64,000 nucleotides of DNA, from contig DATJEK010000095.1 of NCBI GenBank assembly GCA_035496715.1, positions 264 through 64,263 of the forward strand. Direction: 5' to 3'. This stretch comes from Candidatus Eiseniibacteriota bacterium. GTDB lineage: Bacteria > Omnitrophota > Gorgyraeia > 2-02-FULL-51-18. Below, in pieces: positions 41,893 through 64,000 of the stretch. The position numbers and the translations under genes were made by a program. The notes below the pieces were generated by a model. The model was not told the origin of the DNA. It saw only the letters and a list, made by a program, of their open reading frames with translations, and ran no database searches. Numbering within the stretch: the stretch's first letter is position 1; each line of letters opens with the position of its first letter.

Positions 41893-42045
41893 TTAGACTA
41901 TGAATATATAAATATATTTACTAAGAGACGCGAATAAAAAATACGCGCCAAAATAAACTCTCGAGGAGTCCATTTTTTACCTTATTTTGCCGTTTTCAGG
42001 GTTTGAAAATAGAGACCGATTTTACCCATGTCTATGCATGGCATA

Positions 42046-42074
42046 AGTTTACATGACCCCCTAGCGGGATGCAA
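42046..42074 (-). promoter_or_regulatory. Candidate sigma70-like promoter for giant gene 1: -35 TTGCAT (42069-42074), 17-nt spacer, -10 TAAACT (42046-42051)
   Basis: Read on the reverse complement. Each hexamer matches consensus at 4 of 6 positions. Several other AT-rich hexamers in the island are equally possible. Confidence 0.2.
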
Positions 42075-42115
42075 AAAAATGTGAACTCGTAACACTAATA
42101 TATGCATAGACTTAC

Positions 42116-42206
42116 AAAAAAAGGAGGCTACGCCCCGGACGATGTGGGATCGGTGTTCTGGAACCCGGCGCCGTCAGGCGGCGGGACAGATTCGCGAGGC
42201 GTAGCC
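42116..42206 (-). terminator. Candidate intrinsic terminator for giant gene 2: 9-bp stem (GGCUACGCC / GGCGUAGCC) enclosing a structured ~63-nt loop, followed by UCCUUUUUUU
   Basis: Stem arms are at 42198-42206 and 42126-42134, with the U-tract (plus-strand A7) at 42116-42122. This lies 12 nt after the TAA stop at 42218-42220. The large loop contains an internal 5-bp hairpin (CGCCG-ccuga-CGGCG). Confidence 0.35.
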
Positions 42207-42217
42207 CAGACTTTTCG

Positions 42218-45200
42218 TTATGCGGCAGACCCGACCGCTTTGATCGCGAACGCGGCCTGCTTGATCAAATCCACCAGTTTCTGGAGCGGCGGCAGCCAGC
42301 GGAAGATGCCGTTGCCGAGGTTTTCGAGTCCCGGCACGCCGGTCGTCTTGCCGTCCGACAGGCGCAGGCGCACGGCCACGTACGGCATGCCGTTGGCCGA
42401 CTTGGCGCCGGCGTTGAGCTGCAAAAGAAGGGGTTTGCGTTCCTGCTCGCCGGTCTCCCCCAGCTTCAGGTCCGTGCCTTCGCGCGCGACCATGATCCAG
42501 GGGTTGCGGTAAATTCCGTCGGCCTTCGCCAGCTGCGAGAGGTCGCTCAGGTTCGGGCGGAACACGAGCCGGCCCGGGAACGCCGCGGCTTCGGGATGCG
42601 CGGGAAGGCCCGCGGCCTCGTCGCCTTCGATGTATTTGCGCTTCAGCGTCTCTTCCGAAGCCAGCGCGGGGTCGAAAGCCGGATTCGTCACGACGAGCTG
42701 GTTCACGACGGCGAGCTGCTGGCCGGTGCGCCGGTTCATTTCCTCGATACGCGAATTCACCTCGTTCAACTGGCGCACGTAGTCCCATGAAAGCATGCTT
42801 TCGTGGGTCGCCACGACCGTCGTGCCCGCCAGGTTTTCGAGCGGAAGGTCCGCCGGATCGAGTCGCAGCGCCCTCTCGGTCCTCTCGAGGATCCGCTGTT
42901 TCGCCGCCGCGAACGCGGCCGAGAGATTCTCGAGCTTCTGCGCGAGCTCGAGGCCGTTGTCGGCGACGAGGTAATCGTTGGCCGCGGCGCCCGCGCGGAT
43001 GAGCTGAACGCGGGTCTCGGCGTCGGTCGGCGCCTCGAGCGCCGCGTCGAACCGTTTTTCGAAGTCGCCGAGGTCCGCCTGCCCCGCGATGAGGACCGGC
43101 CGCGCCGCGGAGATGACGGCCGCGCCCGAGAGCGCCCTCAGCTCGCCGTCCGCGGTGATCTCCAGCCGGACCGCCTGCGCGGCGGGCAGCGCGATCCCGG
43201 CGAGCTGCCGGCGAAGCTCCGCGACGGAGGCCAGTTTCAATTCGTCCAGAGTCCCTTTTTCGTTTTCGAACACGAACGCGATCGTCTCGAGGAGCCTGCC
43301 GGTGATTTCGCCGGCGACCGCGCGGGCTTCGGCGGCTTTTTCCTCGCGAAGGCGCAGCGCGTCCGCGAGCCTCGCCTCGAGGACGTCGGGCGCATTCACG
43401 GCGCTCTCGTCGACGAGCAGGTTGACGGGGGCGGACGCGGAGGCGGCGAATGCTTCCGCTCCGGTGACGGCGACGAACTTGAAATCCGTCTCGAGGCGCG
43501 CGGCGATCCGCGTGTCTTTCAGGGCTTCCGCGATCCGGCGGCTCTTCTCGCCAAGCTCGGCGGGGTTCGAGACGAGCGCCAGGACAATGGGCTCTTGTAA
43601 AAGAGTTGAAGAAGTGACGTCAAAAGAGGGGCCTCCGCCTCGGACTTCGGTGGCGAGGCGCGCCCCGTCCGCTCTCTCGCGGATGACCCGGCGGGCCCGC
43701 CGCGTCGTCGCGACCGGCAACGTTACGCTCTGCCGGGGCAGCGCGGCGAGGACCGTCGAAAGAAGCTCGGCGACGGCGTCGCGGGTGTCCGCATGCACTC
43801 TCTGGCCCTCGAACGCGATGACGCCGATGAAGCCGCGGACCACGTCCGTCCAGAGATCCGACTCGGCGGGCACGGCGTCGGCGGCCAGCGACGTGAGGCG
43901 CTCGGCGGCGCGGCGCATCACCAGCGGCCGCTGGTTGTTTTCCAGCCCGTTCGAGAGTCTCGCGAAATAAAGGACGCGGTCCGACTGGATGCCGGCGATC
44001 GCGTCGATCGCCGCCAGGCGGATGTCGTCGGCCGTCTGGTTGGAAGGCACGCCCAGATCGGTCGCGCCGTTCAGGATCGTCACCAGCGGCTGGGTGGCGG
44101 AAGGATCCAGCTGGACCGCCGCCCCGATGTCGCGCACGGCTTCGATCGCGAAGATTCTCAGGGCCGGCCTTTCCTGCGGGGTCTGGGCCAGGCCCAGGAG
44201 CGCGGCCACCGCCTGCGGGGCCTCTCCGGGGTGGGTCGTGGTGACGCGCGTGACGACGCGGCGCAGCATGTCACGGCGGGTGGCGACCTGCGCGCCCCGG
44301 TCGCGGATGCTGAGGCCGTCGATCAGGTAATCGGGCCCCACGCCGGGCTGGGCCGGCACGAGGTTCTGCACGGCCGCGTAGGCCTCCGCGAGATGATTGG
44401 CGAACGTCCGCACGTGTCCGCGGCGGAGGCTCGGGAATCCGGCGGCGGCGGCCTGCACGGCGGCCGCGAACGCCGCCTGCGTCTCCGGGCGGACGGCGGC
44501 CGTCTGCGGGTTGACGGCGGTCGTGCGGAACGCCACGAAACCGTCCGGCGTGAAGCGGTCGCGGACGAGCCCGGTCGCCGCGAATTCGACGAGATAGTTG
44601 GCTTCGACGGGCAGATTGTCGCGGGTGCGGTTGCCCTGGTTCCAGGCGGTCTGCCGCGCCTCGAGCGTATTCAGGATCCCTTCCACGCGCGTGACGATGA
44701 CCGGCACTTCCTGCCAGAGCTCGGCGTCGTATCGCAGCGCCTCGCGGAGCTCGGCGAATTCGTCGAACGTCGAGAAGCGCAGCGCGCCCCGCGGCTGGGC
44801 GATCGCCGCTTCGGCCCTCGAGCGGACCGCGGCCGTGGCGTCCGACACCGGGGTCGCGATGTCCGGCTGGACCGGCAGATGCCTCAGGCTGCGGTACGCG
44901 ATGCCCAGCGACGTGCGAATGGCGCCGAGGTCCTCCCGCAGCCAGTCGGGCGCGATGCCGATGTTGCTCGTGACACGGTTCATTTCGGTCGCGCGGCGAA
45001 GCTCGCGGATCGTCGCGCCCAGATTCCGGCGGTAGGTCGCCGGCAGGGCGAACGGGACGCCCTCCTGCAGGCTGTCGGAGTAGACCGCCAGGAGCGTGGC
45101 GAAAGACCCGATCTCGTCATTGGCCCTCTGCTGGAACCGCTCGAGATAGCGGCGGAGGTATTCGCGGTGGCGCGGGCCCTGGTCCCCGAGCTCCAGACGC

Positions 45201-45600
45201 GCGTGTTCCAAACGGTAGTCGACGAGGCGCAGATTGAGGATGAGCTGGGCGAACGACGCGTACTGGAGCGCCCGGCGGTATTCGCGTTGGAGCTCCTCCG
45301 GCACGTGGGGCCCGGCCAGCTCGAGCTGCTGGATGACGCCCGCGATCTCCCTCGTTTCGGAGGTGCGCATGATGAGCTGCTGGGTCAGGTCGCGGCGGAA
45401 ATTCACGGTCCGGTTGATCGTGTCGATGTCCGCGATGACCCGGCGCGCGCTTCCCGAGGCGGCCTCGACCTCGCTCAGCTGGCGCGCGAAATCGCGCGTG
45501 AAATTGAGGAGGACCGGCAGGATCTGCGTCACGGTCGCCCCGCCCTCGTTGAGGATCGCCAGTCTCGCGCCCGCCACCGCGTCCCTGGCCCGGACGAGAT
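42218..45600 (-). other. C-terminal ~1,100 aa alpha-helical region with HEAT/ARM-like repeats (AIEAVRDIGAAVQ..., IRLAAIDAIAGIQS...)
   Basis: Repetitive A/L/I-rich helical hairpin pattern in the translation. No catalytic motif recognised. Confidence 0.3.
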
Positions 45601-48600
45601 ACGGCGCGAGTTTCGCGTCGTCCTCCTGGGCGTCCGTGTCTTCCAGATAGGCCTTCACGACGTCCGCGGCGTTCCCCAGCTTGGCGGCATCTAGGTCGCC
45701 CGTGACGACCGCCGCTACGGGAGTCTTGTCCTCCATCGCCAGCATGAGGACCGTGAACGTGTTGTCCGCGCCCACCCGCTCTCCGGTGCCGACGTTCTCG
45801 ATCGAAAGCTCCGCTCCGCCCTTGCGCAGCTCCGCGGCGATCTTCACGAGCCGGCCGGCGGGGCCCATGTGGAGGCCGTTGGGATTGTTGAGCGCGGTCT
45901 CGCGCCGCTCCTCGGCGAGCCGGGCGCCCTGCGCGAGGGCCTGACGGATGCGAGTGGCCTTGTCGTTCAACGCGCGGGCTTTTCTCAGATCCTCCGCGAC
46001 CTCTCCCTGCGTCTCCTGGTCGAGCGAGGCGATGCCGGTGATCACCGCGGCCGTCTGCAAAAGCGTCCGGGTCAGAAGCGGGCGGATCTGGTCGCGCTTG
46101 GCGGAGTCCAGGCCTTTCAGCGCTTCGACGGAAAGATCGACGACGCTGCGGTCTTTTTCTTTTTTCTGCGGAAGGAGCGCGACGGCTTCCTTGAAAGCCT
46201 CCTGCGCCGACGTGAGCGGGGTCTTCACCTTGCGGTTCAATTCCTCGCTCCGGCGGGCCGTCTCGGCCGCCTCGAGCTTCGCGTCGCGGTGCCTCTTCAG
46301 GAGCACGTAGACGGCGGTCCCGCCGCCCAGGATGCCGACGGCGGCGATCACGTAGACGACGGCCGAGGTCTTCGCGGCCCCGACCGGCAAGGCCTTCTCG
46401 ACTTCGGCCTTCGTCTCCTCGACGACGACGGGCGGTTTTTCCTCCGCCTTTTTCGCCTCGGGTTCCTTTTTCTCCGCGGGTTCTTTCTTTTCTTCGGGCT
46501 TGGCCTTGGGCGCGGGCTTGTTGATGTCCAGACGCGCGTCGCCGCCGCGCCAGTACGCCAGAGGATCCCGCTCGAAGAACACGTACATCGACGCCATCGC
46601 CGTCACCCGCTCGTCGAGCGGAGGGATCCAGCCGAAGCCCGTGCCCTCCGCCTTTCTCCATCCGCCGAGGCCGGGGCCGGCGGCGTACGGGTTCGGACGG
46701 GTGTAGAGCCTCGTGCGCACCGACGCGAGGTCCTTGCGCAGCCCCTCGATGTCGTCGGCCGTCACGGATTCGGTCGGGTGGTTCAGATAACGGTCGATCA
46801 TGAGCGTCAGGACCGTGTCGGTCTCGCGCTCGGCGTCCTTGCCCCTGCGGGCGATGGCGGCGTTCCATTCGGGCGGGATCAGGGCGCTCGTCTCGTCGAT
46901 CACGCGGCCCTTGATCTGGTTCGTGTAGTCGAGGCCCGCCAGCGGGAGCTTGAGGCCGGCCGGACGATAGTCGGCGGTGCGTCCCGCCTTCTCGCGGATC
47001 GATTTCCACATCCGGAACGACGCGCCCTTTCCGAAGAGTTCGTCGATTTTCTCGACGCCCAGCGACAGGAGCGTCCACGTCCCGCCCGAATCCGTGGCGA
47101 ACTGGTTTTCGATCTCGAGGCGTTTGCGCGCCTGGTTCCAGAAGACGCCCATGTAGAGCGTGCCGTCCGCGGGGTTCAGCATGCCCTTCTGCGACTTCCA
47201 TTCCCCGCCCTCGGTCTGGACCCAGACCTCCTGCTCGCTCAGGAAGCGCAGGATCTTGTCCGCCGCGTCGGAATAGGCCTTGTCTTTCGTCAGGTTGAAC
47301 AGCGTGCGAAAGGCCGCGTAGGCCGACACGTTGTTCTCGGAATTGAGGTAGTAGTAAGCCGTGTCGTCGTTCTTGCCGGCGGCGGGATTGTACTGGCTGC
47401 GGGGGCCGTAGCGGACGCCGCCTTCGGTGGTCTGCAGGCGGAGCATCGCCTTGCCGAGCTTGTTCACGAGCGCGACGTACGCGCGGTTTTCAGGGGCGTC
47501 GACGCCGCCGTATTTCTCGATGTAACGCGAGGCCGCCATCGCCAGCCAGGCGTTGGGGCCCGTGTGCACGTTCCAGAACGACCATTCCTTCGTCCATCTC
47601 CCGGTGGCGTCGGTGAAATTGAAAATGTAATGCACGTCGGCGTCGAACGGCTCGAACGCGCCCTTGTTGTCGCGCGACGGATACGCGCCGAGCTGGAAGT
47701 CTCCGTAGCGGCCGCTGGCGTAAATGTCGAGGATGCGCTGGGCCGATTTCTGCTCGCCCTGCTCGGTCAGGATGAGGACGGCCAGCGCCGTGTCATACAG
47801 ACCCGACCCGCGGCGGATGATGAGCTCGTGGTCCTTGTTCTCGAACTTGATGCCGGAGACCGCGGGGACGTGGAACGTCGCGGGCAGGCCGTATTCGAAG
47901 CGGCCTTTCCGGTTGAAGCTCTGGGTCTCGATGAACGTGACGGCGTCCTTGGGGGTCTTGAGCGTGCGGATGACGCCTTCCTTGTCCTCCAGCACGTTCT
48001 GCGCGACGGCCTGGTTCAGGAAGGGGTTGATCGACGGCGGCAGGACGCTGAAGGAAAGAAGGGTGATCGCCAGGACCGCCGGACGCAGGAACCCGCCGAA
48101 GGTCCGCCCGAAAAACCGCACGGCCCTTTCCAGGAGCGACGGGCGCGAGGGGACCACGACCGGCGCGGCGGCGGAGGGGGTCTCGGCCGCCAGGCGCGCG
48201 CCCTTGACCTGCTGGTAATAGGAGCTTTCGTGGAGGCCGACCTTCACCCCCTTCTGCTCGAACGGCGTGAAGTCCAGGATCTGATAATCGTTGGCGCCCG
48301 GGGTCTTGCCGGGTCGGGCCATGAGCTCCGACCGGAACTGCGCGATCTCCGCTTCCACCGCCTGGCGGCTTTCGGCGCTGGGGTTCTTGAGGTAGAGCAT
48401 GAGCACGCCGCCGTGGCCGGCGCCGGCCGGCTTCGAGGCGACGATGAGGTCTTTCGCCTTCAGGCGCTCCGTGATGGTCTTCATCTCGGGCGTGATGAAG
48501 CCCTCCACGACGTCGTTGAACTGCGCGGCCTGGCGCTCGGCGAGCCGGAAGAGCTCGCGGATGTCGCCGCCGTGGCCGTCCTTCAGCCCCTGCAGCCAGC

Positions 48601-51600
48601 TCTCCGCGGCCTGCACGTCGGACTCTCCCTCGCGGAGGTTCTTCATGTAGTTTTCGTCGCGGCGCAGGTATCCGCGGATCAGCTGTCCGAGGACGTCCTT
48701 GGCCTCATGCCGCTCGGTGACGACGAGGACCGTGTGTTTCTGGATGTTCGAGAGGATTTCGGCTTCCCGCTCCTTGAGCGTGGCGTCCTTCTCGATCTGG
48801 TCGGCGAGCGTGCCGATGTCGCCGTCGATGGTGCTGAGCAGATGCAGGCCCGGCCAGGTGATCGCGTCCTGCCAGCCGCCGAGCGACTTCAGGCGGACTT
48901 CGAGGAACGAGCCCAGGAGAGCCAGCTCTTCCTTCGTCAGGCCTTCCGAGCGGCCGCTGACCCGGAGAAGCCCGTTGATGAAGAAGCTCGCCAGCATGAC
49001 GCTCCCGCCCAGGCCGGTCCGCGGCGGGATGTTGGTCACCAGTTCCACCGTCATGTCGAGCTGCTTGTCTTTCAGGTAGTTCTGCGGATTACGGGCGCCG
49101 TCCGGAATGAAACCCGTGGCCCGCAGCGCGTCGAGGAAATATTTGGCCTGCGGGTCCTCGTCCGGGCCGAGCTCGGCGACCGACTCGGCGTCGTACACGT
49201 GCGTGTATTCGGCGGTCGTCTCTTCTCGGACCGAGCCGTCCGGCTGCTCCGTGAATTTCTTGTACGTGCCCTTGTAGCTGACCCGTCCGCCGCCCGATTC
49301 GCTTTCGCGGACCGAGATCTTGAGCTCGTAGGCGGGCCGCGCCTTGCTCGGCTGGGGCTTCTGCCCCGCGGGGGCGCGCTTTCCGCCCGTCAGAAGGTTG
49401 GCCTGGAAATTCAGCACCTTTTGCGGATGCGTCGCCGAGCCGGCCCGGGAAACCAGGTCGCTGGCGAGGATGTGGAGGAGGTCGAGACGGAACGACGTGC
49501 TGAACTCGTACACCTTGCTCGTCCCCTGCCCTTCCATCTCGATCGGGCGGTAGAGACGCTCCGCGTAGGGCGCGAGCTTGGCCTCCATGTACTGGAGGAG
49601 GCTCGCCATCACCTTCTGCCAGTAGAACTCCGACAGCTTCTGCTGGTTGGCGCCGGTGAGAGACTTCTCCTGCGGGTAATACGGAATCGGCAGCTCCCAT
49701 CCTCTCGGGATCCCCAGGACGCCCTCGCGCCCGTCCTGATCGTAGATGTCGGACAAAAGCTGGTAGGCGCGCGCCTTCTGCATGAAGATCGGGGCGTTGG
49801 CCGGGACGACCGGCGTCGGACGGTCGACGAAATCGCGCAGAGCCTGCGCGATCTCCTTGACGTCGGCCTGGGTCACACCGCGCAGGAGCTCGTGGTTGGA
49901 AACGTCGAGATCGCGCTCGATGGCGTCGAACACCGCGGGCACCTGGGCGCCCGTCGTCCGCGTGGCCGCGAGGGCCCCGTTTTCCTTCTCCCCGGCCTGC
50001 CAGCGGATCTGATGGCCGCCGAACCACTGCGGCCCCTGGTGGGACGGGTCGATGTGGCGGGTCGTCACGAACGTGCCCTGGTAAGTCTGGGTGCCCGCCT
50101 CGTAGGGAACGAAGCCGGCGCTGACGCTGAACACGTACTCGGTCCCGTTGTCGGTGATGTCGTCGACTTTCGCCTGCCGGAACGCCCAATCCCTGCCCTC
50201 GATCCCGTAGTGCAGGTAGAAGGGCGAGACCGTCCGGAAGATCTCGACGTCTTTCACGGCCGATTTGAGAATGCGGATCTGCGTCTTGAAAACGATCTGC
50301 CTCGTGTGGAGGTCGAGGGTGACTTCCGGGATGCGCTTGGCGCGGTCGGCCTCGCGGGGGACGACGGCCCACAGGTCGTCCGCGTCGTCGGCCCAGGCGG
50401 CGGTCTGCACCGTCTGGGAAAGACGCGCCCCCGCCGGCACGCTGACCGGGACGCCGATGTGCCAGCCGGGCGGCAGCTGCTGGTACGGGTCCCCTTTGAT
50501 CAGGTGGCTGCCCGGGTGCTCGCGGTCGTAGGTGCGGCGGCTCTCGGAGAGCGGCGCATAGTGCGCGGGCCGGATCTCGAGCACCTGGAAATGCGTGCTG
50601 TCGGGATAGAAATCGTCGACCTTGTAGCGGCTGTTGAAATCGTCCCGCACCCCGAGGGACTCCAGGTCCGTCACGGCGAGCCAGGCCTTGCCGTCGATGT
50701 GGACGGGGTGGTTCGCGAAATGGAACGGGATCGTCACGTGCCGTCCGCCGGCGAGCGTCTTGGAAAGGACGATGGCCGTCTGCGGCTGGCTCTGGTGGAC
50801 GTGGAAGTCCGCGCCGCCGATCACCGGTTTGAGCGCGTTCAGCCGCGCGAAGACTTCCGGATTCCAGTCCTCGATGACCGAGAGGTAATCCGGGTACAGC
50901 GCGGTGATGAGCGCCATCACGGCCGGCACCGCTTCGCCGAAGCGCTCGGCGGCCTCTTCCGGCTTCAGGCGGACCAGCTGGCGGAGAAAATTCCGGAACC
51001 CCTGCGCGGGATTGGCGCTGTTGCGGATCTCGCGGATGCGGCGGCCCAGGAGCGCCGTCGGCAGCTCGCGCCCGTCGATGAATTCTTCGTTGATCGCCGC
51101 CTCGACGAAACGCGTCGCGTCGTCCCGGTCGATCTCCGAAACGCGCTGGAATTCGCCGTCGGCGGCCTGCGGGACCATCCGCAGGACCTGGAAATGCGTG
51201 ACGCCCAGCGGCAGACCCTTGCGCGCGAGCTTCTGCAGCGTGTGGGGCGGGTACGTGCGGCCCGAAATCACGTTGTACGCCGCGTAAATCTGGGGCTTGC
51301 CGGTCCCCTCGAAGGCCTCGGGCCCGAGCACCGCCCGCACGCCCTCGGGATAAAGCGTCGCCCGCGCCTTCGTCGCCGAAACGCTCTTGTAGATGAATTC
51401 CCTCCAGTTGACCGAGACGATCATCCGCTCGCCGTCGATGACGGCCGCGTACGCCTTCAGGTTGCTCGAGGTGGTCTGCAGGGGGGTCGTGTTCTTGTCG
51501 AGGTAGCGGATGAGGTTTTCCCGCATGCGGATGTCGTGCATGTACTCCTCGAGCGACTCGCGCGTGTCCCCGTCCCCTTCCTTGTAGCGCAGCAGGAGCT

Positions 51601-54600
51601 GCCAGGCGAGCTGGGCCGCGAGCTTGTCGACGAGCTCGAGCGCCATGAAATTGAGCTGAACCTTGCGTTCGGCGTCCGCGCCCCTGGCTTCGGCGGCCAG
51701 GCGCTCGATCTCCTCGGCGAAGGGTTTCAGCGACTCGCCGCCGTCCTTGAGGAGATTTTGGCGGATGAAATGGAAGATGTCTCCGTCGGGGCTGGCGGTC
51801 GTGTTGTTCGCGTGGTACTCGACGCTCGCGTAGGCGTTGTAGCCCTTCGTGCGCAGCCAGCGGATCGAATCGACGAATCCGAGGAAACCGGGCCGCTCCT
51901 GGCCGGACTCGAGGAGCGCGCGGCCCTGCGGGTCGGCGGGATTGGCCCAGTGGAAGCCGTTTTCGTTGAAGAACACCTTCTGGAGATCCTCGGTCTGCTT
52001 CTGCCTGGCCGGGACGGTCGTCGGATTGAGCGACGCGAAGAGCGCCTTCTCGCCGTTGCGCTGCGCGATGGCCTCCTCGAGGAGCCTCGCGTGCGCCCGG
52101 GCCTGGCTGCGCTCCATGTCCACCTTGTAGGAAGAAGCCCAGACCGCGTACTGCGTGGCGCGGCGAGTCTCGGGCGCCGAGTAATCGCGCTTCAGGCCTT
52201 TCAGCGCCTGGAGCAGCCCCCGGCCGGCGACCGACGAAGGACGGCGCCCGCCCCCGCGCTCGCGGCTCTTCTCGGAGTCGTTGTATTCCACGAGCTCGCC
52301 GTTGGGCATGACCCATTCGCCGCTGTTGAGTTTCTGGCGCAGCTGGTCGTGGGTGACGGGTTTTCCGTCGTTGTGGGTGAACACGTTGATCACGGGCCCC
52401 AGCCCGTCCGGAGCCGCCGGGTCCGCCTCGTGGATCGTGAAGATCTCCGGCATCGCGCCGCCCCACACGCCGATGTATTTGGCGAAATTGAGCGCCGCCT
52501 TCATCATGCTCGTCGCGGACGCCTCGAGGAATTCGTCCGAAAGCATCACGGTGCCGGCCATCGCCTGGAAGATCACCGGCGCCTCGTCGACGTTGTAGTT
52601 TTCGATCGTCGTGATCTGGTCCTGGAGGCCGAGCTCCTCGACGAGGCCCTTGATGCGGCCGAACATCGCGAGCGCCTCCGAGCCGAAAATGCGCCCGCCG
52701 ATGACCACGCGGCCGGCCTCGCGGCGGAACGCCTCCAGCTCCGACGGGTGGGCCTTGAGGTGCTCGAGCAGCTCGATCCATTTGTCGGGGCCCTTGTACG
52801 AAACCTGCCGGCGCACGTTCGAGACGATCGGCTGGGCGAGCAGGCGGTCCCGGACCTGGCCGAAGCGAGCCTCGATGTCCGCCCACCGGGCGTCGTCGCC
52901 CGAAGCCGAGGCTTCGGCGACCGCCTTGCGGAATTCGGCGAGCACGGCCTCCGCGTCGGCGACGCCGGCCATCGTGCTGTCGAGCCAGCGCCCGTTTTTC
53001 TGCTCATCCCTCATCCACACGAGGAACTGCGCGACGTACGAGGCGCTCACGAACTCGCTGCGGCGCGTGAATTCGTCCTTCAGCGCGGCGTTGACCGGGT
53101 CCTTGAACGCCGCGGCCAGCGCGGCGTCCGTCGCCTCGTCCTCCCAGGCCTCGACGGGCAGGCCCAGTTTCTTCTTGTAGTAGCTGAGGATCTGCCGCCG
53201 CTCGGCCGCGCGCCAGTGCTCGACCAGCGCGCCGTTGGTGCTGCGCATGCCGTCCTGGTTCCACCCCTTCAGTTTGTTCACGTGCGCGGCCAGGATGTCG
53301 CGCGCGAGCACCGGCAGGTGCTCGTAGATGCCGACGCCGGTCAGGACGTTGGCGTCCATGGCGACCGCGTCGACGACGTTGATCTTGCCTCCCTGCACGA
53401 CGTAGGGGCGCTGGTATTCGGGGTAACCCAGCATCTCGAACGACGCCGCGTCCGGCTGGTACAGGCCGGGGCGGAACACCGTGTGGTTGATGTGCAGGCG
53501 CACGGAATCCGGGAAAAGCGGGGTCGGCATGCTGACGAACACCTCGTTGTCGACGAACACGACCTCGTCCTTGATCGCCTTCTTTTCCTGGAGGCGCTTG
53601 ACCAGCGTCTGGCTGGCCAGCGCGTACACGCCCATGTGCACGTCGCGCCAGAGGTACGAATAGTCGTTGCCGCCGTCGGCGTCGGGATAGACCTCGTCGA
53701 AGACGGGCCGGAGCACCTGCCCCTGGGGACCTTCCGCCACGAAATGCGCGTCGATGTAGTAGATCGGAGTCCCGAACGGCGTCTCGGTCCGGTAGACCTG
53801 CACGCGGATCTCGCGGTCGACGATCTCGCGCGACTTGCCCTTGGCCTTGGCGCGGAAGTCGTCCCCGATGTTGAGCCGGATCGTGAAGCTGAGCTCGGGG
53901 TCGGGCTTGCCGAGCGCCTCGCGCGTGTAGTCGCCGAGCGACTTTCTGCCGCTGCGGACTTCTTCGGGAAGGTCTTCGGGGCGGATGAACGGCTGCCCCT
54001 TGATCGTGTCGTAAATGGGGTTGATGGAGATCGCGTCGATGCCGTTTTTCTTCCAGGCGTTCACGAGGTCGAACATCAGGGCGCCGAGGCCGCCGGTCAG
54101 CGTCGTCTGCGTGACGAACCGGGTGATCGCGCGGTAGAGGCGGACGAACGGCGCGAACACGCCGCGGGGTTCGGGCCGCGGCAGGGATTTCTCGCGGATC
54201 CGCTTGATCAGCTCGAGGTCCATCCCCTGCTCGAACTGGCGGGTGACGAGCGTCGAGCGCTTGAGGAGCGGCGTGAAGTAATCGACCCACGGCGCCAGAC
54301 GCGCGCCCTCGACGAGACCGCGGCTCGGCGCGCGGGTCTCCCGCGCGACCACCTCTTCGATCGCCCGCGAGACGATCGAGGAGCGGGGCGCCTCGGGCGC
54401 GGAGGCCAGGCGCGCGGCGGCCACGCGGACGCCCGTGTCGATCTGGTGGCGGATCTCGCTCGAGGCGGACCACTCGTTGATCTGGCGCGTCGTCTGGGGG
54501 CGGAAGTCGGGCCTCGCGAACGGCCCCAGGCCGAGCGCGTTTCCGGCGTGATCGGCCCGCGTGAGAGCCTGCGAGCGGGCGGCGACGAGAGTCTCCACGT

Positions 54601-57600
54601 TCGCCGGCGTGACGGCGCCGAGCTCGGGGGTCTGCAGCCCGCCGGCGGTGGCGCGCGCCCGTGCGGCTCGCTGCTGGCGGTCCCGTCCGCTCTGCGTGCT
54701 GAAGACGTAGCCGAACGTGCGGCGGATCACGAAGAACGATTTGCCGAGCACGAAGAGAGGCGAATACCGGAAGCCGCTCATGAGGCCGTCACGGTCCCGG
54801 AACGCGCTGAACGAGTACATGCCCGAAAGGAACGCGAACGAGGTCAGGAGATACGGCAGGAGGATCGCCGGCCCGAACGGCGTCATCATGACGAACGCGA
54901 TCATCCACGAAAGCACGCCGGCGAAACCGACGAGGCTGTTGAGCGGGATGCCGCGGGCGCCGAAGAACGGGATCCCGCGGAAGATCATGAGCTCGTCGAA
55001 GCGCTGCTCGTCATCCCAGGACCGCAGGAACGCCTCCTTCACGGTGCGGAGGAACGAGAACATTTCCTTCGAAGCCAGCATGACGCCGCGGAAGAAGAAC
55101 GGGATCAGGAACACGTAGAACGGCAGCGCCGTGATCAGGTCCTTGCCCGCGAGGTAGAACGCCTGCCAGAAGCTGCCCGACTCGCGCCAGTGCCGGGTGA
55201 AATTGTTGGTGTTGATGGCCTCCATCAGGATGAAGCTCGACCCGACGAAGAAAAAGAACGGCTTCAGGAACGCGAACGCCGAGAACGGCGAGAGCACCGG
55301 AAGCAGGATGAGGAGCGTCAGGGCGAACGGCGCGATGAAATAGTGGAACCAGAGGAAAATGTGCGTGAGCTTCACGCTCGCCGGGACGTTCGGGTTGTAG
55401 AAGACCGCGAACGAGCCGCGGTCCATCATGAACCGCGTGACGTTGAACGAGTAGCGCATCTCGGTCGTGACGAGCGACTCGGCCAGGAGCGACGGACGTC
55501 CCCAGCGGTACGTGAACCAGTCGATCTGCGTGCCGGTGTAGAAGACGCCGTACCGGTTCGCCGAGCGCTGCAGCATGAGCAGGCCCTCGGAGTCTTCGCC
55601 GGGCGGCGAGAACGGCCCGATCGTCTGCGGGATGCCCATGTACTTGCCGTAATCCAGGAGCTTGCCGCGCAGCGCCCGCTGGACGTCGGTGGTCCAGACC
55701 ATCTGCGCGATCGCGTAGATCTTGGTCGCCGGGAACGAGTCGGAGGTGCTCGCCCAGATCTTCATCATCGGGTTGATGGCGGCCAGGTTCGGCTGGCGCT
55801 GGCGGCTGTTCATCGAGGCCCAGGTCGAGCGGAACACGTGCTGGCCGTGCTCGTTCATGACGTGCGCGTCGTAATCGACGGTCGTGCCGTAGAACTCGGC
55901 GAGGTTCAGCGCGATGCCCTGGTGCTTGCCGGGGTAGTTGTTGAGGAAGTTGTCCGCCGCGAAATTGTGGAACGCCACGCGGACGTTGTTCTGGCCGGCC
56001 TTGCGGTAGGTGAGCGCGCTCTGGGTCAGCGTGTTGAGGCGCTCGCGCACGTCCGCGGCGTTGACGAGCGTCGCGTCGGGTCCGCGGCCCAGGAGCTCGA
56101 CCATCCGCACGAGACGCTCGTTGTTGGCCTCTTTCCAGGCGAGAAACGCCTCGGACCAGGCCGCCATGCTGGCGAACTTCGCGCGCCGCGCGGCGTCGGT
56201 GACCGGCACGAACTGCGGGTTGAATTCGTTGAGCTCGTTGATGAGGCCGGTCACGGCCGGGCCCATCAGGCCGGCGGGGCCACCGAGGAGGGATCGCCGC
56301 ATCGGGTCGTCGGCCGGAAGCCGGTTGGCGTAGTCGGTCAGGATCTTGATGAGTCCCGTGTCGGCGGCGGGAGGCCCGGCGACCTGCAGGGGGCGCACGT
56401 CGGTGAGGTTCACGCCTCCGGCGGAGCCGCGGAAATTCCCCCAGAGCAGCGCGTCCTGGAAGATCGGCCGCAGCTTGAGGTCGATTTTCGCCTGGTAGCG
56501 CGCGTAGTTGTCGACGAACACCAGCTGGCCCGGGGACAGCGAGGCGCGCGGAAGCGCCGAAAGCGTGCGGTGGGCCTCCGCGAGAGACGTGTTCGAGGCC
56601 GCGATTTCGCGGACCGCGGCCTGATAAGCGAGATTGCCGGTCTCGAACGCGGCCAGGAGGTGATACTCGACGTAATCCTGCGCCATCGAATCCATCACGG
56701 CGTCGTTGTTGGGACGCATTTCGTTCATCCAGCCGAGGATGGCGCGGTAGACGACCTCGCGTTCCGACACGGTCAGGCCCGCGGTCGTGAGGAGCTCGAC
56801 GATGTTGGTCCGCTCGTTGACGTTCCGGAGGAGAACCGTGGCGCGGCGGACGTTGGCGGAAGGGTTGTGCGCGAGCGCGCTGTCGATGCCGACCAGGTTT
56901 TCCCATTCGGCGGGGTTCGTGCGCGCGACGTAGCCGGCCAGCGACGTCCGCCGGTCCGCGCCCGGCGGATCGGACGGCACGGCCGGGATCTCGTTGAACG
57001 TGCCCAGGACGATGCAGTTTTCGAGCGTGTGGCCGAACATTTCTCCGGCCGCCTGCACGTGCGTGGAGCTCGCCTGCAGGAGCGCCCAGACGTCCGGGAC
57101 GACTTTCTTCTGGCTCAGCGTGAAAAAGGTCATCTGCAGGAGGTCCAGCGCCTTCGCCGAGCGCGGACGCACGAGCCGCCCGTCGGGGGAGCCGCGAAGC
57201 GCGTCGCGCCACTGCTGCGCCTCGTCCTGCGAGAGCAGGTAGCGGCGCTCGAGAATGCCGACCAGGCGCTCGAGATACTCGGCGACCGACTCGCCGTTGG
57301 GGATCGGCGAACGGTGATTTTCTTCCACGTCCCGGAGCTCGCTCAGCCATTCCCCGAACTTGCCCTCCCAGAATTCGGGCAGGTCGCCGCGCGGCAGCGA
57401 ACGGAAGACGAGGTACACCGCGAGGCCGCCGATCACGAAGAGGACGGTGAACAGCGTGAATCCGACGGGGATCACCGCGAAGATGACGCCCAGCGCGCCG
57501 AGCAGATACAGCGGGACCGCCAGCTTCATGAAATGGGAGAAGAGCTCCGACGTCGGCACGCGGCTCGAGAACATCGCGCCGAGCAGGCCGCGGAACGGGT

Positions 57601-60600
57601 TCAGCGACCGCCAGCCGATGAGCGACCGGGCCGTGTCGCTCCAGAGCTCGCCGTTCAGCGCGAAATAGCTGCGCAGGCTCACCGCCAGGTGATAGAACGA
57701 AATGACCGTCACCGGATAGGTCAGGGCGAGGAGGATGACGGTGAACAGGAATCCCAGCGTGAACGCGCCCACGACCGTCACGCCGCTGAAGAGGAAGAAG
57801 ACGAGGAGGCCGCCGACGTAGACGGTGCTGGCGCCCATGATCACGCCGCCCCAGAAGAACTTCTCGTTCCAGGGCATGCTGGACCAGAGGATGGGCAGAA
57901 GCAGCGGCGCCACCAGGATCACGAGGATGCCGACCGCCAGGAGCTTCGGCGCCATCAGGATGATCGCGGCGCCCGCGGCGACCGTGAGACCCGCGGTCAC
58001 CAGGAATCCGATCTTCTGTCCCGTGCCCATGCCCCAGAATTTCCCGAGGGAAAAGAGCGGCTTGAGGAGCCTTCCGCCGTACAGCGCCCGAAGGCCGATC
58101 CCGGCGGGCCGGAACGCGAAGATCAGGAGCCCGAGGCCCGCGGCGACCACGAGCGTCGGCACGACGAGACCGCCGACGAACACCCCGATCGCGACGCCCG
58201 CGGCGGCGGTGACCAGGCCGAGAAGGAGCGGGATGCGGCGCACGCTCGCCGGCCGTTTCGTGGAGAGATCCGCCGCCGTGGCCTCCGGGTGATCGATGCC
58301 GGCCAGGCGGAGCGTCGTGCGCTTGTAAGCGGCGGCGATGTTGTTCTTTTCGTTGTCGTCGGCGCCGGTGGCGATCGCGCGCAGCTGCGCGGGCGTGCGG
58401 ACGCCGCCGCCGACGGTGGCGGCGATCTGCTGCTCGACGGTGAGCGCGGGGCGGCCGTCCCGGCGGGCCTTTTCGGCCTCGATCTGGACGGATTCGAAAA
58501 GGTCCCAGATGTCCAGGTCGATGAAAAGGTCCAGGAGCTGGATGCGGTCCAGGTCGCGGCGGATCACGTCGAGGATGTCTTCGACGGAGCGGCCGGCCGT
58601 GAGCGCGGCGTCGACCTGCGCGACGAGCACGTCGCGGCGGTTGCGGCCCAGGAGCGCGCCGCGCACGCCGTCGAGGACCTGCGCGCGCGTGAGCGCGCCG
58701 TTGCGGAGGATGCGGTCGATGTTGGTGAGGACCATCTCTTCCGCGGTGCTCCACTGGTCGCGGCCCGTCACCAGCTTGTAGCGGTCGAATTCCCGTTTCA
58801 CGATCGGCCCGAACGCGCCGTTCAGGTCGTCGACGGTCTGCAGCACTTCGGCGGGCGTGCGGCCGGCGGCGATCGCGGCGTTGGCCTGGCGGACGACGTA
58901 CATCGAAAACGGCCACATCGCGGCGAACTGGCCGATCGAATGGTTGCCGGTCTGCGACGGCGGGCGCTGGACGAGCTTCAGGAGGATGAATTCATTCAGG
59001 CTGACCGGCTCCACGGCGCGGTTGATCGGGTTCGGGTTGTAGACGATGTCCCCCGTGGCGGCCTGGCTCAGGAGCGTCGGGTTCTTCATGAGGTACGGCA
59101 GGAGCTCCGCCTGGGCCGACTGGAGGATATCCGCCTGCACCGCGGGGCTCACCTGCCCGGCGTAGCTTGCCGTCATCACGGCCGTCATCCTCGGCTCGAT
59201 GAAGCGGCGCGACACGAGAGCCTCCACGAACGTCGTCAGGCTCGTGTAACCGGCGGCCAGCGCCGTGATCTGGGCCATCGTCAGGATGCCGCTGTCGAGG
59301 AGGTAGCGGAGCGTGTTCGCCTCGGGCGTCACCGGCAGCGCGTCGACCCAGCGCTTCTTCGCGGCGTCGGACATGCCGGGGCGCAGGATGGCGGCGGTCA
59401 GGACCTTGTCCTGGGCCTTCTCGATGAGGATCTTCGTGACCCATCTCCACAGGAGATCCCCTTGGCGGCGGCCGCCGTCCGAAGCGGCCGTGACCGCGCT
59501 CTGCAGCTCGGCGTCCGAGATGAGCCGCGGCCCGCCGGTGGCGTCGATCAGGTCATAGAGGATGAGCGCCTGCGGATATTTGTTTTTCGCCCGCGCCATC
59601 CGCACGTCCACGGCCGCGTTGGCCGCCGTGAGGCGGGGCGCCGTCGGGTAGAGATGGGGATCCCTCTCCAGGTCGTCGAACGGATAGGTCGGAATCCTCA
59701 CTCCCACCGCCTGGAGCGGCCGTTTGAGATGCAGCGTGCTGCTCAGGAATCCGACGAGCTTCCCTCTCCAGGAGCGGCTGTACTGGTCGGCGTAGACGAG
59801 GCGGTCGACTTCGTCGTTCGAGAAGCCCAGCACGTTGCCGTAATGGTTCCGGATCAGGGCTTCGCGCTCCGCTTCGGGGATGTGGGGCCCCAGGACGAGA
59901 CCGGTGCCGAGCTCCTTGGCCATCACGAGCCTCTGGCCGGGATCGGCCGTCGCCAGGCGGGCGCCGAAAATGTTGCGGTTGGCGTCGGCCGCGTCGTTCG
60001 CCTCCGGGCTCTCGGCCTCCGGAGAGCGGCGCAGACGCCTGTATAAAGGAAACAGCGTCATGAGAAGCAGCGCCGCCCCGCCCATCCACCAGGCGTTGTT
60101 CATGGTCCAGATGAGGTAGTCCCGGCTGACGCGCTGGGGGCGGTCGTTCTCGCGCTCGACCGGGAGGGCGGTCCCCTCTTTTTCGATCTGGTTGAAAAGA
60201 TTTTCCACCTTGTCGCGGTCGATCGCGCCGACGCGTCCGGCGACCCATCCGGGAACGCCGTTGTAAAACTTGTCGTAAAGCATCTGCGTGAGCGTCAGGT
60301 CGTCCGGGTTCTGGGGGTTCATCACATGGATCGCGCTGATGCCGGCCTGGCCCTTCGACGTGATGCTCGCGACCAGCTCGCCGTTGCGGATGAGGTACGC
60401 CGAGGCGCCCTGGCCGCGAACCTCGGGGCTGAGGATGTGCTCGGAGATCAGGATGTAGATGTCGCCTTTCTTGCCGTACTCGCCCTTGTGGTCGACCCAG
60501 GTGCGCGTCGAGAATTCGCTGTAGATCGTCGCCGTCGGCGACCGGCGGTCGTAGTCGGTGCCCGTGAAATTGTAGACGTTGAGGAAGATGCCGTCGCGCG

Positions 60601-63600
60601 AGGTCTGCACGTACGGATACGGGGTGTTCGTCGCGTACTGCTTGCCCTCGGCGTTGTAGCGCACGCCGTACACTTCGTACACCGTGTGCGTCTGGTAGTT
60701 GTACACGACGATGCCGGGGTTGCGCTGCTCCGCCGCGCGGTCCGAGGGGATGACTTCGTACACGTACTCGCCCTTCGCCTGCTGGTGCTCCCGGAAGCGC
60801 GTGTTGCGGATGACCCGGTTGGGATCGCGGCTGACGTCGACGACGATTTCGCCCGGCGAGACCCCGAACGGCGCGTGGATGTCCTTGGCCTGCCACTTGA
60901 TGAAGCGCACGAAGCCCGAGCCCTCGACCGCCAGCGTCCGAACGAGCGGATCGTCGATGTCGACGTAGCGCGCGTCCATCGCGAACTCCGTCCCGTTGGC
61001 CTTCAAATACCGCGTGATGCGCGAAAGCCGCACGTCGTCGCGCACGGGCACGCCGTTGTCGCGGAGCTCCTGGACCACCGAGGCCGGCAGCCGCATCTGC
61101 GTCATTTTGTTCCCCTTAAACTGCTTCTCGAGCGCGGGAGATAGCGCGCGCTCCCCGACGAGCTGCGTCATCGCGACGGGGATCGGGTCGGCCTGGATGC
61201 GGAACACGAGTCCCTTCGAGAGCTCATAGCCGTTGGTGGCGTTCTCCTGGTTCCACCGCGTGTTGATCATGACGTTCGACTCGCGGTCCGAGGAGAAGAA
61301 GAGCACGATGCGCGCGAACGGGTCTTCCTTCACGCGGACGGTGTAGCTGGTGCCGCCGTTTTCCATGCGCACGGCGGTGACGACGAGCGTCAGCGGCCCG
61401 TTGACGGCCATGCTGCGGCGAAGCTCGGTGAGGCTCTCGTGCAGATAGGTCTTGGCCTCGGCCTTCTGGTTCGCGGGGATCTGGTTCGCCAGGTCGCGCA
61501 CGATCGGAGGAAGCGCCCCGTTTCCGTCGACGATCCAGTCGGCGTCGGCCGGGACCTGGTAGGGTGCCTCGTATTTGTAGGTCGTGCTGATCGCCCGCTC
61601 GCCGAGGGAGTAGACGCCGTTGGACTTCTCGGCGACGTAGGTGACGCGGATCGGCAGCCCTTTGAGCGTCATCGCCGTCGGGTTGTCCGAGATGAACTCC
61701 GCCATGTAGCGTCCGTCGGGCAGCTGGGAGATCGTCGCGCGTTCCTTGCCCTGGGAGTCGACGGCGCGGGCGCGGACGAACGCTCCGTTGGGGGCGATCT
61801 CCTCGAGGATCCGCCAGCCGGTGGGGCTGATGGGGAAAAATTCCTTGGGGAAGCTGCTGAACGTATTTTTCGTCTGGACCGCGTAGCCGACGGCCGGAGC
61901 GGCTTTGCCGGCCTCGAGGGGCGCGCCGTTGCGGTCGAGAGGCCGGTACTGGTTGTCGAAGAAGAAGGTCTGGTTCACCGGCAGGTCGTCCTCGTAGCCG
62001 CGCGCGTCGCGCACGCGCTTCTCGAGGATGGCCGCGGTCTGGTTGCCCTGGATGACGACGATGCCGTGGACGGGGACGGCGTTCACCGTCTGGGGGCGGA
62101 GATAAAAGGAAGCGCTCTCGCCGCCGTTGGGATCCGTGGCGTACGCGCGGTCGAAACGGCCGAAGCGGTCGACGCGCACGTAAACGCGGCCGCCGTTCAG
62201 GGTCTTTCCGGTATCGTGGACGCCGCCGACGACGTTGCCGAGGACGATCTCTCCCTTGGCCTTGTCGTCCAGGTAGGTCCGCACTTCGAACATGCCGGGG
62301 CCGATCCGGACGATCGCCTCGCCCGTGAGCCCGCCGTCGGTCGGATAGAACGTGATCTGCTCTTCGCCGGTGACCGTGTCGTTGGCCACCATGCGTTTCT
62401 GGTTGTTGAGCTCTCCCGCGGCGGGGCCGAAACGGACGTCGTACACCGTGCTGCCGTTGACGGTCTGCGGCGCGCCCTTGGCCATGCGGATCGTGCGCTC
62501 GGAGACCATCCCGCCCTCGCGGATGGCGTCGCCTTCCTTCGTGTAGGCCGTCGTGACGCTGCGCGAAGGGATCGCGGTGTTCGGCAGGTAGGCCTGGTGC
62601 ACGGTCCGCGTCCAGTTCTCCACGACGCGGTCCGCGGCGCCCGGCACGGGGATCACGCTCGTGCTGATCAGCGTGTTCCGCTCGAGCGGGCGGGTCTCGC
62701 GGTAGGCGCTGCCCCCGACGGTGACCGAGATGATGTCGAACGTGTCGATGTAGACCCGCCCGCTGCGCAGATCGGTCACTTTCACGCGGCTGCGGCCGAG
62801 ATTGTCCACGGGCAGCGGCTCGTAGATGCGGTCGCGCTTCCATTCGCCGCCGTCCCAGAACCAGACCACGGCGACGCCCGTCTGCACGCCGAGCGGATCG
62901 CGCTGGAAATAAACCTCTTCGTTGGCGCTCACCGTGCGCCGGATGAACTGGTTGAGCTCCCTCTCCGCTCCGCGGAAGCCGCCGAACACCAGGACCGTGT
63001 CGCCGCCCTCCGTGTAGCGGTTGCCCGATTTGATCTGGTCGGCGAGCTCCAGGATCCGGGCGTCGCGCACGCGGCGGGCGTGGTTGAACGGATCGGCGGG
63101 CTGAGTGGGATTGGTCTTCTGGTCGGCGCGAAGCTTCTCGTATTCCGTGCGGGCCTCTTTCAGCCTCTCCGCGAGCTTCGTCTGGGCCGGGCCGACGACC
63201 GCGGGGTCGACGCTCAAATCGGCCACGCCGGCCCGGATGCGGATCACGGCCCCGGTCAGCTGGCTGGGCCCGGCGAGCGCGGCGGTTTTGACGAGCGCCT
63301 GGTTGCGGGCGACCTCGGTGCGGGCCTCGCCGGCGCCGCCCAGGAATTCGACGACGTAGAGCGTCCCCTTCGGCCCGAACGTCCCGGCCGCGTCGACGTA
63401 CCGGAAGGTGTTGTCCGCGAACTCCTTTTCGCGGGACACGATCTCGGCCTCGACGGCGCCGCGGGGTTCTCCGGCGCGCATCTTCTGCACCCAGGTGTCG
63501 CGCAGGCGGTCGAGCTCGACCGCTTTCTGGCCGATCACGGCCTCCCACTGCGCGATCTGCGGCGGGTTCTTGGCCACGACGGGGTCGCGAACGAAAATCC

Positions 63601-64000: not shown

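Follow-up and report, generated by a model that had tools for sequence, protein, structure and literature searches.

A giant gene from an Omnitrophota contig encodes a probable multi-enzyme membrane protein with a glycan-synthase-like core and cassettes bounded by GARL[AS] junctions

In this study, a giant gene was analysed in a 64,000-nucleotide (nt) stretch of contig DATJEK010000095.1 (hereafter the window), which GTDB places in Omnitrophota. The gene, designated giant gene 2, occupies positions 42218-64000 of the minus strand as an open frame of 7,260 codons, with its 5′ end beyond the window edge; its neighbour on the same strand is giant gene 1. Gene 2 is a real giant gene, 5′-truncated, and represents the 3′ part of a longer one. 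It probably encodes an Omnitrophota-type giant multi-enzyme membrane protein with a glycan-synthase-like core and with enzyme cassettes that are bounded by GARL[AS] junctions and probably processed there. Comparison with relatives leads to an estimated full length of ~9,600 amino acids (aa), of which at least 7,260 codons are visible. The coordinates below are those of the window, and the features lie on the minus strand unless stated otherwise.

The earlier note on this DNA, made from the letters alone, had pointed to a GARL boundary motif common to both giants, and the counts bear this out. GARL is the most over-represented tetrapeptide in each protein: gene 2 contains it 7 times where 0.5 would be expected, and gene 1 contains it 32 times where 1.4 would be. 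The next residue is nearly always Ala or Ser, and the pentapeptide GARL[AS] is found 7 times in gene 2 against 0.08 expected and 30 times in gene 1 against 0.25, jointly 37 against 0.33; one-off variants of it occur at chance level. The seven copies in gene 2 lie at aa 1346 (59954-59965), a position kept in the relatives P0131 (residue 3710), P0130 (2415) and P0132 (128); at aa 3232 (54296-54307), the upstream edge of a cassette insertion described below; at aa 4524 (50420-50431) and aa 5267 (48191-48202); at aa 6025 (45917-45928) and aa 6144 (45560-45571), directly before and directly after the HPr module, respectively; and at aa 6779 (43655-43666), the downstream edge of the insertion. Each of the four GARL codons is found in several synonymous forms, with both CGN and AGG for Arg and both CTN and TTG for Leu; what is selected is therefore the peptide and not the DNA, and a signal at the level of DNA or RNA is contradicted by the same variation. 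Gly, Ala and Leu codons of the motif follow bulk usage. The Arg codon is the rare CGT or AGG in 17 of 39 copies, compared with 12-21% in other Ala-Arg or Arg-Leu contexts (p ~8e-7), a bias that may be due to pausing of translation at module borders or to the avoidance of GCGCGC runs.

The motif stands at the borders of modules. All Pfam domains of both genes fall within GARL-bounded segments, and HPr is flanked by GARL on either side in gene 1 and gene 2 alike. The deaminase module of gene 1 and the HPr modules begin within a few residues of GARL; the active His of HPr is therefore residue 16 past the motif, as in free-standing HPr. The 33 segments of gene 1 between GARL copies have a median length of 396 aa, about that of an ordinary protein. 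The motif is embedded in Pro/Ala-rich linkers, with a 1.8-fold enrichment of Pro on its upstream side. At four junctions of gene 1 the motif is doubled, with 9-34 residues between copies (31261-31374, 28870-28941, 18523-18582 and 6880-6918), and doubling is also seen in relatives (GARLTGARLA in P0130 and GARLAEEKSGSRLA in P0131). Such pairs may represent redundancy of sites, or else scars left by lost cassettes.

Relatives were collected by an exhaustive HMMER search with the membrane module of gene 2 (aa 1930-3110). The search returned 96 relatives (E<1e-30 for 56), and nearly all of these belong to proteins of 2,000-7,600 aa, which confirms the family of giant mosaics that had been suggested; the named relatives are mostly metagenome-assembled genomes (MAGs) of Candidatus Omnitrophota. 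A word-indexed search with aa 4525-6150 (GHMP kinase and HPr) gave nothing at 1e-5; the divergence of the cassettes is too great for it, and relatives came to light solely through the exhaustive membrane-module search. In P0130, P0131, P0141 and P0144, no 4-mer is more enriched than GARL, and GARLA recurs in P0132; by sequence comparison, GARL[AS] is conserved across independent genomes at 44-62% identity.

Independent relatives share collinear stretches of more than 3,000 aa with gene 2 (47-62% identity), and P0131, a full-length protein of 5,973 aa, shows how the chain is assembled. Its residues 2340-5486 are collinear with aa 2-3206 of gene 2 at 47% identity, which places ~2,340 residues of gene 2 beyond the window, on its upstream side. 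P0131 then directly matches aa 6773-7259. The last ~480 aa of gene 2 therefore constitute a conserved C-terminal domain, and the enzyme-bearing aa 3236-6779 constitute an insertion between GARL 3232 and GARL 6779; P0131 has a single GARLA where gene 2 carries these cassettes. P0141 (GARLA at 380, 558, 973 and 1387) has other cassettes at the same junction, and the cassettes of relatives at this place include hexokinase, starch synthase, GT1 and HEAT modules. The earlier description of enzymes interleaved with hydrophobic clusters was correct in that both are present, and it missed that the enzymes form one cassette insertion between two GARL copies. The region of P0131 equivalent to the sequence upstream of the window appears low in complexity and coiled-coil-like. 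A search with the first 500 aa of gene 2 against genome and metagenome contig collections found no match, as did an exact look-up of the adjacent ExbB protein, and the N-terminus was not recovered. In a Candidatus Omnitrophica MAG with 64% guanine-plus-cytosine (GC) content (GCA_022072175.1; locus L030, 1-17635), the gene-2-type giant consists of two open reading frames (ORFs) whose stop and start codons overlap in GTGA. Of these, the upstream one is at least 3,333 aa long and ends in -STSA. The giant has extra cassettes where gene 2 has GARL 1346.

The long hydrophobic clusters reported for gene 2 were located using a Kyte-Doolittle scan, which revealed at least 10 transmembrane (TM)-like segments in total: six at aa 1945-2190, forming the first TM cluster (57431-58168), at least three at aa 2894-3040, in the second TM bundle (aa 2890-3100, 54701-55333), and one at aa 5873. 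Among the 96 relatives, conservation peaks in the second bundle. A soluble GT-A-like domain lies between the two (aa 2195-2890, 55331-57418), and a further conserved block upstream (aa ~600-1745, 58766-62203) has 21-29% identity in BLASTP to P0130, P0133, P0138, P0148 and P0164, with no Pfam match. The earlier note recognised the clusters and missed their identity. In predicted structure, this hydrophobic core looks like a processive glycan-synthase-like module of the fold shared by cellulose, hyaluronan, chitin and beta-1,3-glucan synthases. The AlphaFold2 (AF2) models of the core family are confident, and Foldseek matched the core model to BcsA (E 8.5e-5), Chs1 and Fks1/2 (TMq 0.40, ~930 columns). 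The predicted core has a GT-A domain between TM bundles, which is the layout of GT2-type synthases. DYDAH (aa 2709), GEDSEG (aa 2801) and TQIDW..YRWGRP (aa 2824-2836), placed by eye, follow the expected order of DxD, (T)ED and QxxRW, and W2833 is nearly invariant in the core family (at least 90% conserved). These models suggest that the core has synthase activity. The known processive synthases, namely BcsA, hyaluronan synthase (HAS), chitin synthase, Fks1 and Cgs (cyclic beta-1,2-glucan synthase), differ from the core in that it is only 9-13% identical to them, is matched by no Pfam GT2, GT48 or GT84 model, and sits inside a chain of ~9,600 aa.

Five cassettes make up the insertion. Cassette 1 (50432-54295) is GT-B or GT35-phosphorylase-like, with weak matches to Pfam Phosphorylase and Glycos_transf_1 and to NCBIfam P_ylase. 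It contains EASATSMMK (~aa 3826), a form of the pyridoxal-phosphate (PLP)-lysine motif that reads EASGTxNMK in phosphorylases, and three GT35 models cover ~60 aa around it at 14-17 bits, all below their cut-offs of 27-553. Cassette 2 (48203-50419) holds a fucokinase-like GHMP sugar kinase (domain aa ~4960-5212), which matches the NCBIfam fucokinase PRK13412 at E 2.5e-10 over 253 aa, Pfam GHMP_kinases_N at 22.5 bits (cut-off 22.3), GHMP_kinases_C and the PDB fucokinase 9iip (E 0.009), and has the ATP motif PPRTGLGGSVM. Cassette 3 (45929-48190) contains the hydrophobic segment at aa 5873 and has no significant family match and no homologue at 1e-5. Cassette 4 (45572-45916) is an HPr-like phosphocarrier; the excised segment matches PF00381 at E 3.2e-8 (33.9 bits, cut-off 23), and its motif GLHMGPAG keeps the His and has Gly in place of Arg17. 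Cassette 5 (43667-45559) has no significant family match. The C-terminal domain follows (~480 aa, 42221-43654), with 26-33% identity to the C-termini of P0131, P0132, P0138 and P0141, and ends in ...AVGSAA.

Three of the four enzymes named beforehand were thus right or roughly right. The HPr and GHMP kinase calls stand, with the matches above cut-off and the GLH motif of HPr. For the GT35 phosphorylase, the motif and the ~60-aa fragment are present and every model remains below its cut-off, and a six-hairpin glycosidase was supported by no match in Pfam, NCBIfam or PDB sequence searches. The sugar theme is coherent: a synthase-like channel is followed by a GT-B-like module, a sugar kinase and a phosphocarrier, and relatives add hexokinase and starch synthase.

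Gene 1 (928-41892, 13,654 codons, likely start ATG 41844) begins with a signal peptide and a Tiki/TraB-like N-terminal domain (N-domain). The two genes proved to be built alike, as had been proposed, being non-repetitive with hydrophobic clusters, embedded enzyme modules and GARL junctions. The modules of gene 1 comprise HPr, esterase, LOG, methyltransferase, LspA-like, SecA DEAD/PPXD/P-loop, HEAT, dCMP-deaminase and histidine-phosphatase units. Its LspA-like (signal-peptidase-II) segment (aa ~7662-7745, 18658-18909; Pfam A8 E 0.0023) shows NVTE and NPAD motifs and sits in a three-TM cassette bounded by GARL 7518 and GARL 7771. In a separate observation, the L-[AS] pair of GARL[AS] was seen to be similar to positions 1 and 2 of a lipobox.

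The suggestion that genes 1 and 2 are paralogues needs correction in that the window holds no detectable sequence similarity between them. Paralogy or duplication within the window was rejected: BLASTP found nothing (best E 1.5), the HPr modules are unalignable, and the C-terminal domains are unrelated (hhalign probability 0.1). The N-domain of gene 1 opens P0131, P0138, P0157 and P0220, all of them full-length gene-2 relatives (gene 1 aa 13-569 vs P0131 19-569, 35% identity, E 1e-94), and gene-2 orthologues begin with a signal peptide. The kinship of the two genes accordingly lies in their N-terminal ends, presumed for gene 2 from its orthologues, in the junction motif and in composition. The N-domain was recovered at 28 genome loci, nearly all in Omnitrophota MAGs, and the proteins that carry it range from ~1,000 to >3,800 aa. 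It has a fold likeness to the Tiki/TraB/PrgY/GumN-erythromycin esterase-ChaN superfamily, to which it adds a helical insertion of ~250 aa. The protein P0001 (L001 10001-15388, JGI 3300045502) is a 'mini' gene 1 of 1,795 aa with a signal peptide, the N-domain, a Fis-type helix-turn-helix and a SecA-like part 41% identical to aa 8892-9551 of gene 1; it ends in -AAAA and has two AASLG-type motifs and no GARL.

Composition and chain ends also connect the two families. Cys is nearly absent, with 4 in the 20,914 residues of both giants: one in the signal peptide of gene 1, two at the zinc site (CxxC) of the deaminase module, and the last at aa 2329 of gene 2. Ordinary genes on the contigs of relatives have 1.1-1.7% Cys, the adjacent ExbB has 3 in 239 residues, and relatives of both families are Cys-poor. 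The single Cys of gene 2 was rejected as the nucleophile of a cysteine protease, as it falls within the soluble part modelled as a glycosyltransferase and gave no protease-like match. In both families, the last two residues of almost every complete protein are -[A/S]-A (QAA, SAA, AAA, SSA, ASA, VSA, KAA, TSA), namely at 42221-42226 and 931-936 in the window and in P0001, P0132, P0138, P0141, P0145, P0157, L008, L010, L012, L014, L021, L024, L025 and the upstream ORF of L030. This end, seen despite unrelated C-terminal domains, looks like a C-terminal signal and is reminiscent of tags of the ssrA/ClpX or tail-specific-protease type.

Relatives of the N-domain family, which represent more distant lineages, lack GARL and have other over-represented pentapeptides instead, and these are mutually exclusive by lineage. 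Loci L004, L009, L016 and L017 together contain [AS]S[LM]G ('AASLG') 17 times, where 1.1 would be expected, and R[SA]E[LVI]R ('RSELR') is present 21 times among 28 loci, where 0.8 would be; the patterns were found post hoc, with an excess of 15- to 30-fold. The first copy is always just past the N-domain, where gene 1 also has its first GARL (aa 628), and P0121, the closest N-domain relative, has GGRLA and GSRLA there. All three motif classes fit the template x-[AS]-x-[LV]-x. A side observation in gene 1 is the string TASLGARLA (aa 7784-7791; 18523-18534 and upstream), in which the ASLG of other lineages overlaps GARL[AS] in the register of the template.

The following model would accommodate these results. 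Beyond the window, the chain of gene 2 would start with a signal peptide and a domain of the Tiki/TraB/erythromycin-esterase fold, known from orthologues only. A long conserved region comes next, followed by the polytopic membrane module with the predicted processive-synthase fold. The variable array of sugar-handling cassettes then runs from the GT-B/phosphorylase-like unit through the fucokinase-like GHMP kinase, cassette 3 and HPr to cassette 5, and the conserved C-terminal domain ending in -AA closes the chain. The protein may thereby act as an inner-membrane factory, in which cytoplasmic cassettes activate or handle sugars and the synthase core polymerises and exports a glycan. The GARL[AS] junctions would be recognised by a dedicated enzyme, most probably a protease, which would free the cassettes as protein-sized pieces (median ~400 aa in gene 1), and the gene would in effect serve as an operon that is read into a single chain.

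A protease site is the most likely reading of GARL[AS], and we give it an even chance. It is favoured because the motif is invariant and lies in linkers at module borders, because modules begin where free-standing proteins would, because some sites are doubled, and because the whole motif set swaps between lineages, as in co-evolution with one enzyme. A short conserved motif at the borders of independently folding modules is what a polyprotein is expected to have, and it was found here. The scissile bond is presumably the one after Leu. A cut there would give Ala or Ser N-termini, which are stabilising under the bacterial N-end rule. Candidates for the cutting enzyme are the Tiki/TraB-fold N-domain and the LspA-like module of gene 1. 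A wider proposal, which we hold tentatively and somewhat below even, is that Omnitrophota giants are cellular polyproteins, with GARL[AS], AASLG and RSE[LV]R as processing sites, a cutter encoded by the family itself, and cassettes gained and lost at the junctions.

Several points weigh against these readings. GARL is found only 7 times in the 7,260 aa of gene 2, and aa 1-1346 and 1350-3232 would be very long even if cut. A cut of RSELR after Leu would give an N-terminal Arg, and the two-ORF giant of L030 is split inside a cassette and not at GARLA. A strictly conserved linker motif could equally serve docking or modification. The N-terminus of gene 2 itself lies beyond the window; Pfam does not recognise the N-domain save for a weak ChaN match in one member (E 0.022), and the Tiki/TraB fold also spans esterases and a haem-binding protein. 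The synthase assignment comes from predicted structure at 9-13% identity to the templates, with the catalytic motifs placed by eye, and no Pfam or NCBIfam glycosyltransferase matches aa 1350-3235 of gene 2 or the same region of 27 relatives. The closest relatives, P0130 and P0141 (HTL71573.1 and HTL71524.1, 62-72% identity), are labelled Candidatus Eisenbacteria in third-party annotation; either the bin is mis-assigned or the family reaches beyond Omnitrophota.

The alternative that survives best is that GARL[AS] is never cut and serves as a fixed linker aiding separate co-translational folding of the modules or as a docking or modification site for a chaperone, the SecA-like motor of gene 1 or a scaffold, so that gene 2 acts as one uncleaved chain. 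We regard it as possible, though unlikely. It gains from the Pro/Ala-rich linkers with Pro 1.8-fold enriched upstream, from the rare Arg codons (CGT/AGG, 17/39) that fit a translational pause at module borders, from the lack of an identified protease, and from V. archaeovorus, in which peptides map to a giant ORF and processing was not reported (PMC10066038). However, uncleaved linkers seldom keep the same five residues unchanged in 37 copies and between genomes at 45-60% identity, the replacement of the whole motif set by lineage resembles co-evolution with one recognising enzyme, and tandem sites 9-34 aa apart resemble redundant cleavage sites.

An improbable alternative treats the giants as exported effector trains of the MARTX kind, whose cassettes are delivered into or onto host or prey and cut after Leu; the signal peptide and scarce Cys would allow export in an unfolded state. 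By analogy with BcsA and HAS, however, the region past the last TM bundle of the synthase would be cytoplasmic. The kinases and HPr require ATP or phosphoenolpyruvate, sugar-activating cassettes make functional sense in cis with a glycan synthase, and neither a secretion-system signal nor a cysteine protease domain was found.

Far less probable is the view that the GARL copies are scars of cassette gain and loss by integron-like recombination at short junctions, with no function of the peptide. The cassette content of relatives differs exactly at the junctions, and the doubled motifs look like deletion or insertion scars. Nevertheless, conservation is absent at the DNA level: synonymous changes affect all four codons, whereas only Ala or Ser is accepted as the fifth residue. 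An invariant peptide with synonymous variation at the neutral expectation would refute this view, and this is largely what is observed. The 12-nt motif is also far too short and variable for site-specific recombination, and neither repeats nor recombinase genes were seen.

The idea that the gene 2 ORF is an artefact (a shadow frame, a chimeric assembly, or genes fused by sequencing errors), to which the yield of spurious plus-strand ORFs of up to 4,725 aa from this 68%-GC DNA lends some colour, is refuted for practical purposes, since codon-position GC is compatible only with the gene 2 frame over all 21.8 kb, its domain matches are real, independently assembled relatives are collinear (47-62% over >3,000 aa), and the AF2 models of the family are confident.

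The frame itself was evaluated as follows. The minus-strand frame of gene 2 stays open through 7,260 codons as far as the window edge, and its stop codon is the TAA at 42218-42220; the 7,247 aa given earlier were counted from the first GTG (63961). The window has a GC content of 68%, and long plus-strand ORFs in such GC-rich DNA meant that the strand assignment required a test. GC by codon position is 0.6-0.7, 0.4-0.5 and 0.82-0.94 in all 1.5-kb bins, and only minus-strand frames are compatible with this order; the plus-strand ORFs, of 2,400-4,725 aa, are therefore in-register shadow frames. Third-position GC (GC3) of the real frame is ~0.9, which accounts for the great length of the antisense shadows. 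The longest (45869-60046 on the plus strand, 4,725 aa) and four other plus-strand ORFs of 2,400-2,800 aa are such shadows, and a naive gene caller could mis-annotate them. These results uphold the earlier description of a second giant gene that is 5′-truncated, with GC3 periodicity throughout, of a window without plus-strand genes, and of two genes exceeding 20,900 aa together (13,654 + 7,260 = 20,914). A duplicated mis-assembly of gene 1, named beforehand as what would refute that description, is excluded, as are a repeat adhesin and a polyketide synthase or nonribosomal peptide synthetase, because there is no BLASTP similarity between the genes (the best E of 1.5 given above) and there are no internal repeats; neither giant contains such synthase or synthetase domains.

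Giant ORFs are common in Omnitrophota (PMC10066038). West-Roberts et al. (2023) described 'Archaeovorins' as TM-rich giants with divergent SecA domains, and suspected cleavage with no cleavage points known (bioRxiv 10.1101/2023.11.21.568195). Nielsen & Lui (2026) described a 'multi-enzyme metabolic cluster' class rich in sugar-metabolism domains, and reported at least one protein of ≥10 thousand amino acids (kAA) in 94% of complete genomes, with a median of two (bioRxiv 10.64898/2026.06.07.730766). Both genes of the window resemble these giants: each is an ORF of thousands of residues that lacks repeats and includes a signal peptide or TM helices, the chain is a succession of divergent domains (sugar-metabolism, kinase, methyltransferase and HEAT), more than one giant often occurs per genome, the named relatives are mostly Omnitrophota, and cleavage is suspected for the known giants too. 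Gene 2 has the TM helices and signal peptide of Archaeovorin-like giants (at least 10 TM-like segments; the signal peptide in orthologues) and many divergent enzyme domains with none dominant (HPr, GHMP kinase, GT-B-like and synthase-like). The divergent SecA DEAD/PPXD of 'most' such giants is present in gene 1; unlike in most of them, a SecA-like module was not found in gene 2 or its orthologues by Pfam or by BLAST of gene 1 against gene-2 relatives. Gene 2 also falls below the published size thresholds (at least 7.3 kAA visible and ~9.6 kAA estimated, vs >30 kAA in West-Roberts et al. and ≥10 kAA in Nielsen & Lui), and the window has 68% GC compared with 45-64% in the related loci fetched.

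Neither the West-Roberts nor the Nielsen & Lui text mentions a glycan-synthase-fold core, a TraB/Tiki N-domain, a junction motif, a polyprotein, Cys depletion or an -AA C-terminus. Literature searches found no paper on 'Omnitrophota' with 'polyprotein' and nothing relevant for the motif strings. Giant multi-enzyme genes are thus already known from Omnitrophota, often two per genome, and gene 2 joins that class; what appears to be new is the motif that punctuates the chain, the pattern in which cassettes are inserted, and the assignment of the two folds. Viral polyproteins and MARTX or large clostridial toxins are similar in having unrelated modules in one ORF, a short, strict and lineage-specific linker motif, a small residue after an aliphatic position, and tandem redundant sites. 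The giants differ from viral polyproteins and MARTX in that the sites are putative and no protease domain is assigned, in their larger scale (33 segments in gene 1), and in belonging to a cellular organism, with metabolic enzymes of the housekeeping type as modules in place of replication proteins or toxins.

Giants occupy a large share of the small Omnitrophota genomes, and their function is acknowledged as an open question; the absence of cleavage points has blocked structure prediction and functional dissection. The locus provides handles on this question, including a clade-conserved junction motif with its equivalents, cassette exchange at junctions, a core fold and a shared N-domain fold. 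The motif makes it directly testable whether giants are cut, and where, and allows their rational splitting into modules for modelling. If cleavage is true, a cellular organism would be using a polyprotein strategy on an unprecedented scale; if not, gene 2 keeps its value as an annotated member of a class already known.

The region between the two genes was also evaluated. A G+C-rich, terminator-like stem of 92 nt followed by T7 (42116-42207; -54.2 kcal/mol, z -5.5) lies after gene 2, and an AT-rich island of 231 bp (41893-42123, 34% GC) with one sigma-70-like match (TAGACA-17-TATTTT, 42034-42006) lies ahead of gene 1. No Rfam family matched the intergenic region. The terminator-like hairpin and the AT-rich island noted earlier are thus both present, and separate transcripts for genes 1 and 2 are plausible on these sequence features.

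Some observations concern neighbouring genes. Three type II secretion (T2SS) pseudopilin genes (L032 13598-15052; N_methyl/T2SSG) directly follow the complete relative P0133 (4,502 aa), and these surroundings match the T2SS neighbourhood reported by West-Roberts et al. (bioRxiv 10.1101/2023.11.21.568195). The neighbours of P0001 are ordinary genes (cytochrome bc, PFK and ferritin). In the window, an exbB/motA/tolQ-type gene lies 91 nt downstream of gene 1 (117-836; PF01618 E 4.5e-28), and a further minus-strand ORF runs from ~120 off the window edge, for which its position after exbB and a hydrophobic N-terminus suggest exbD/tolR.

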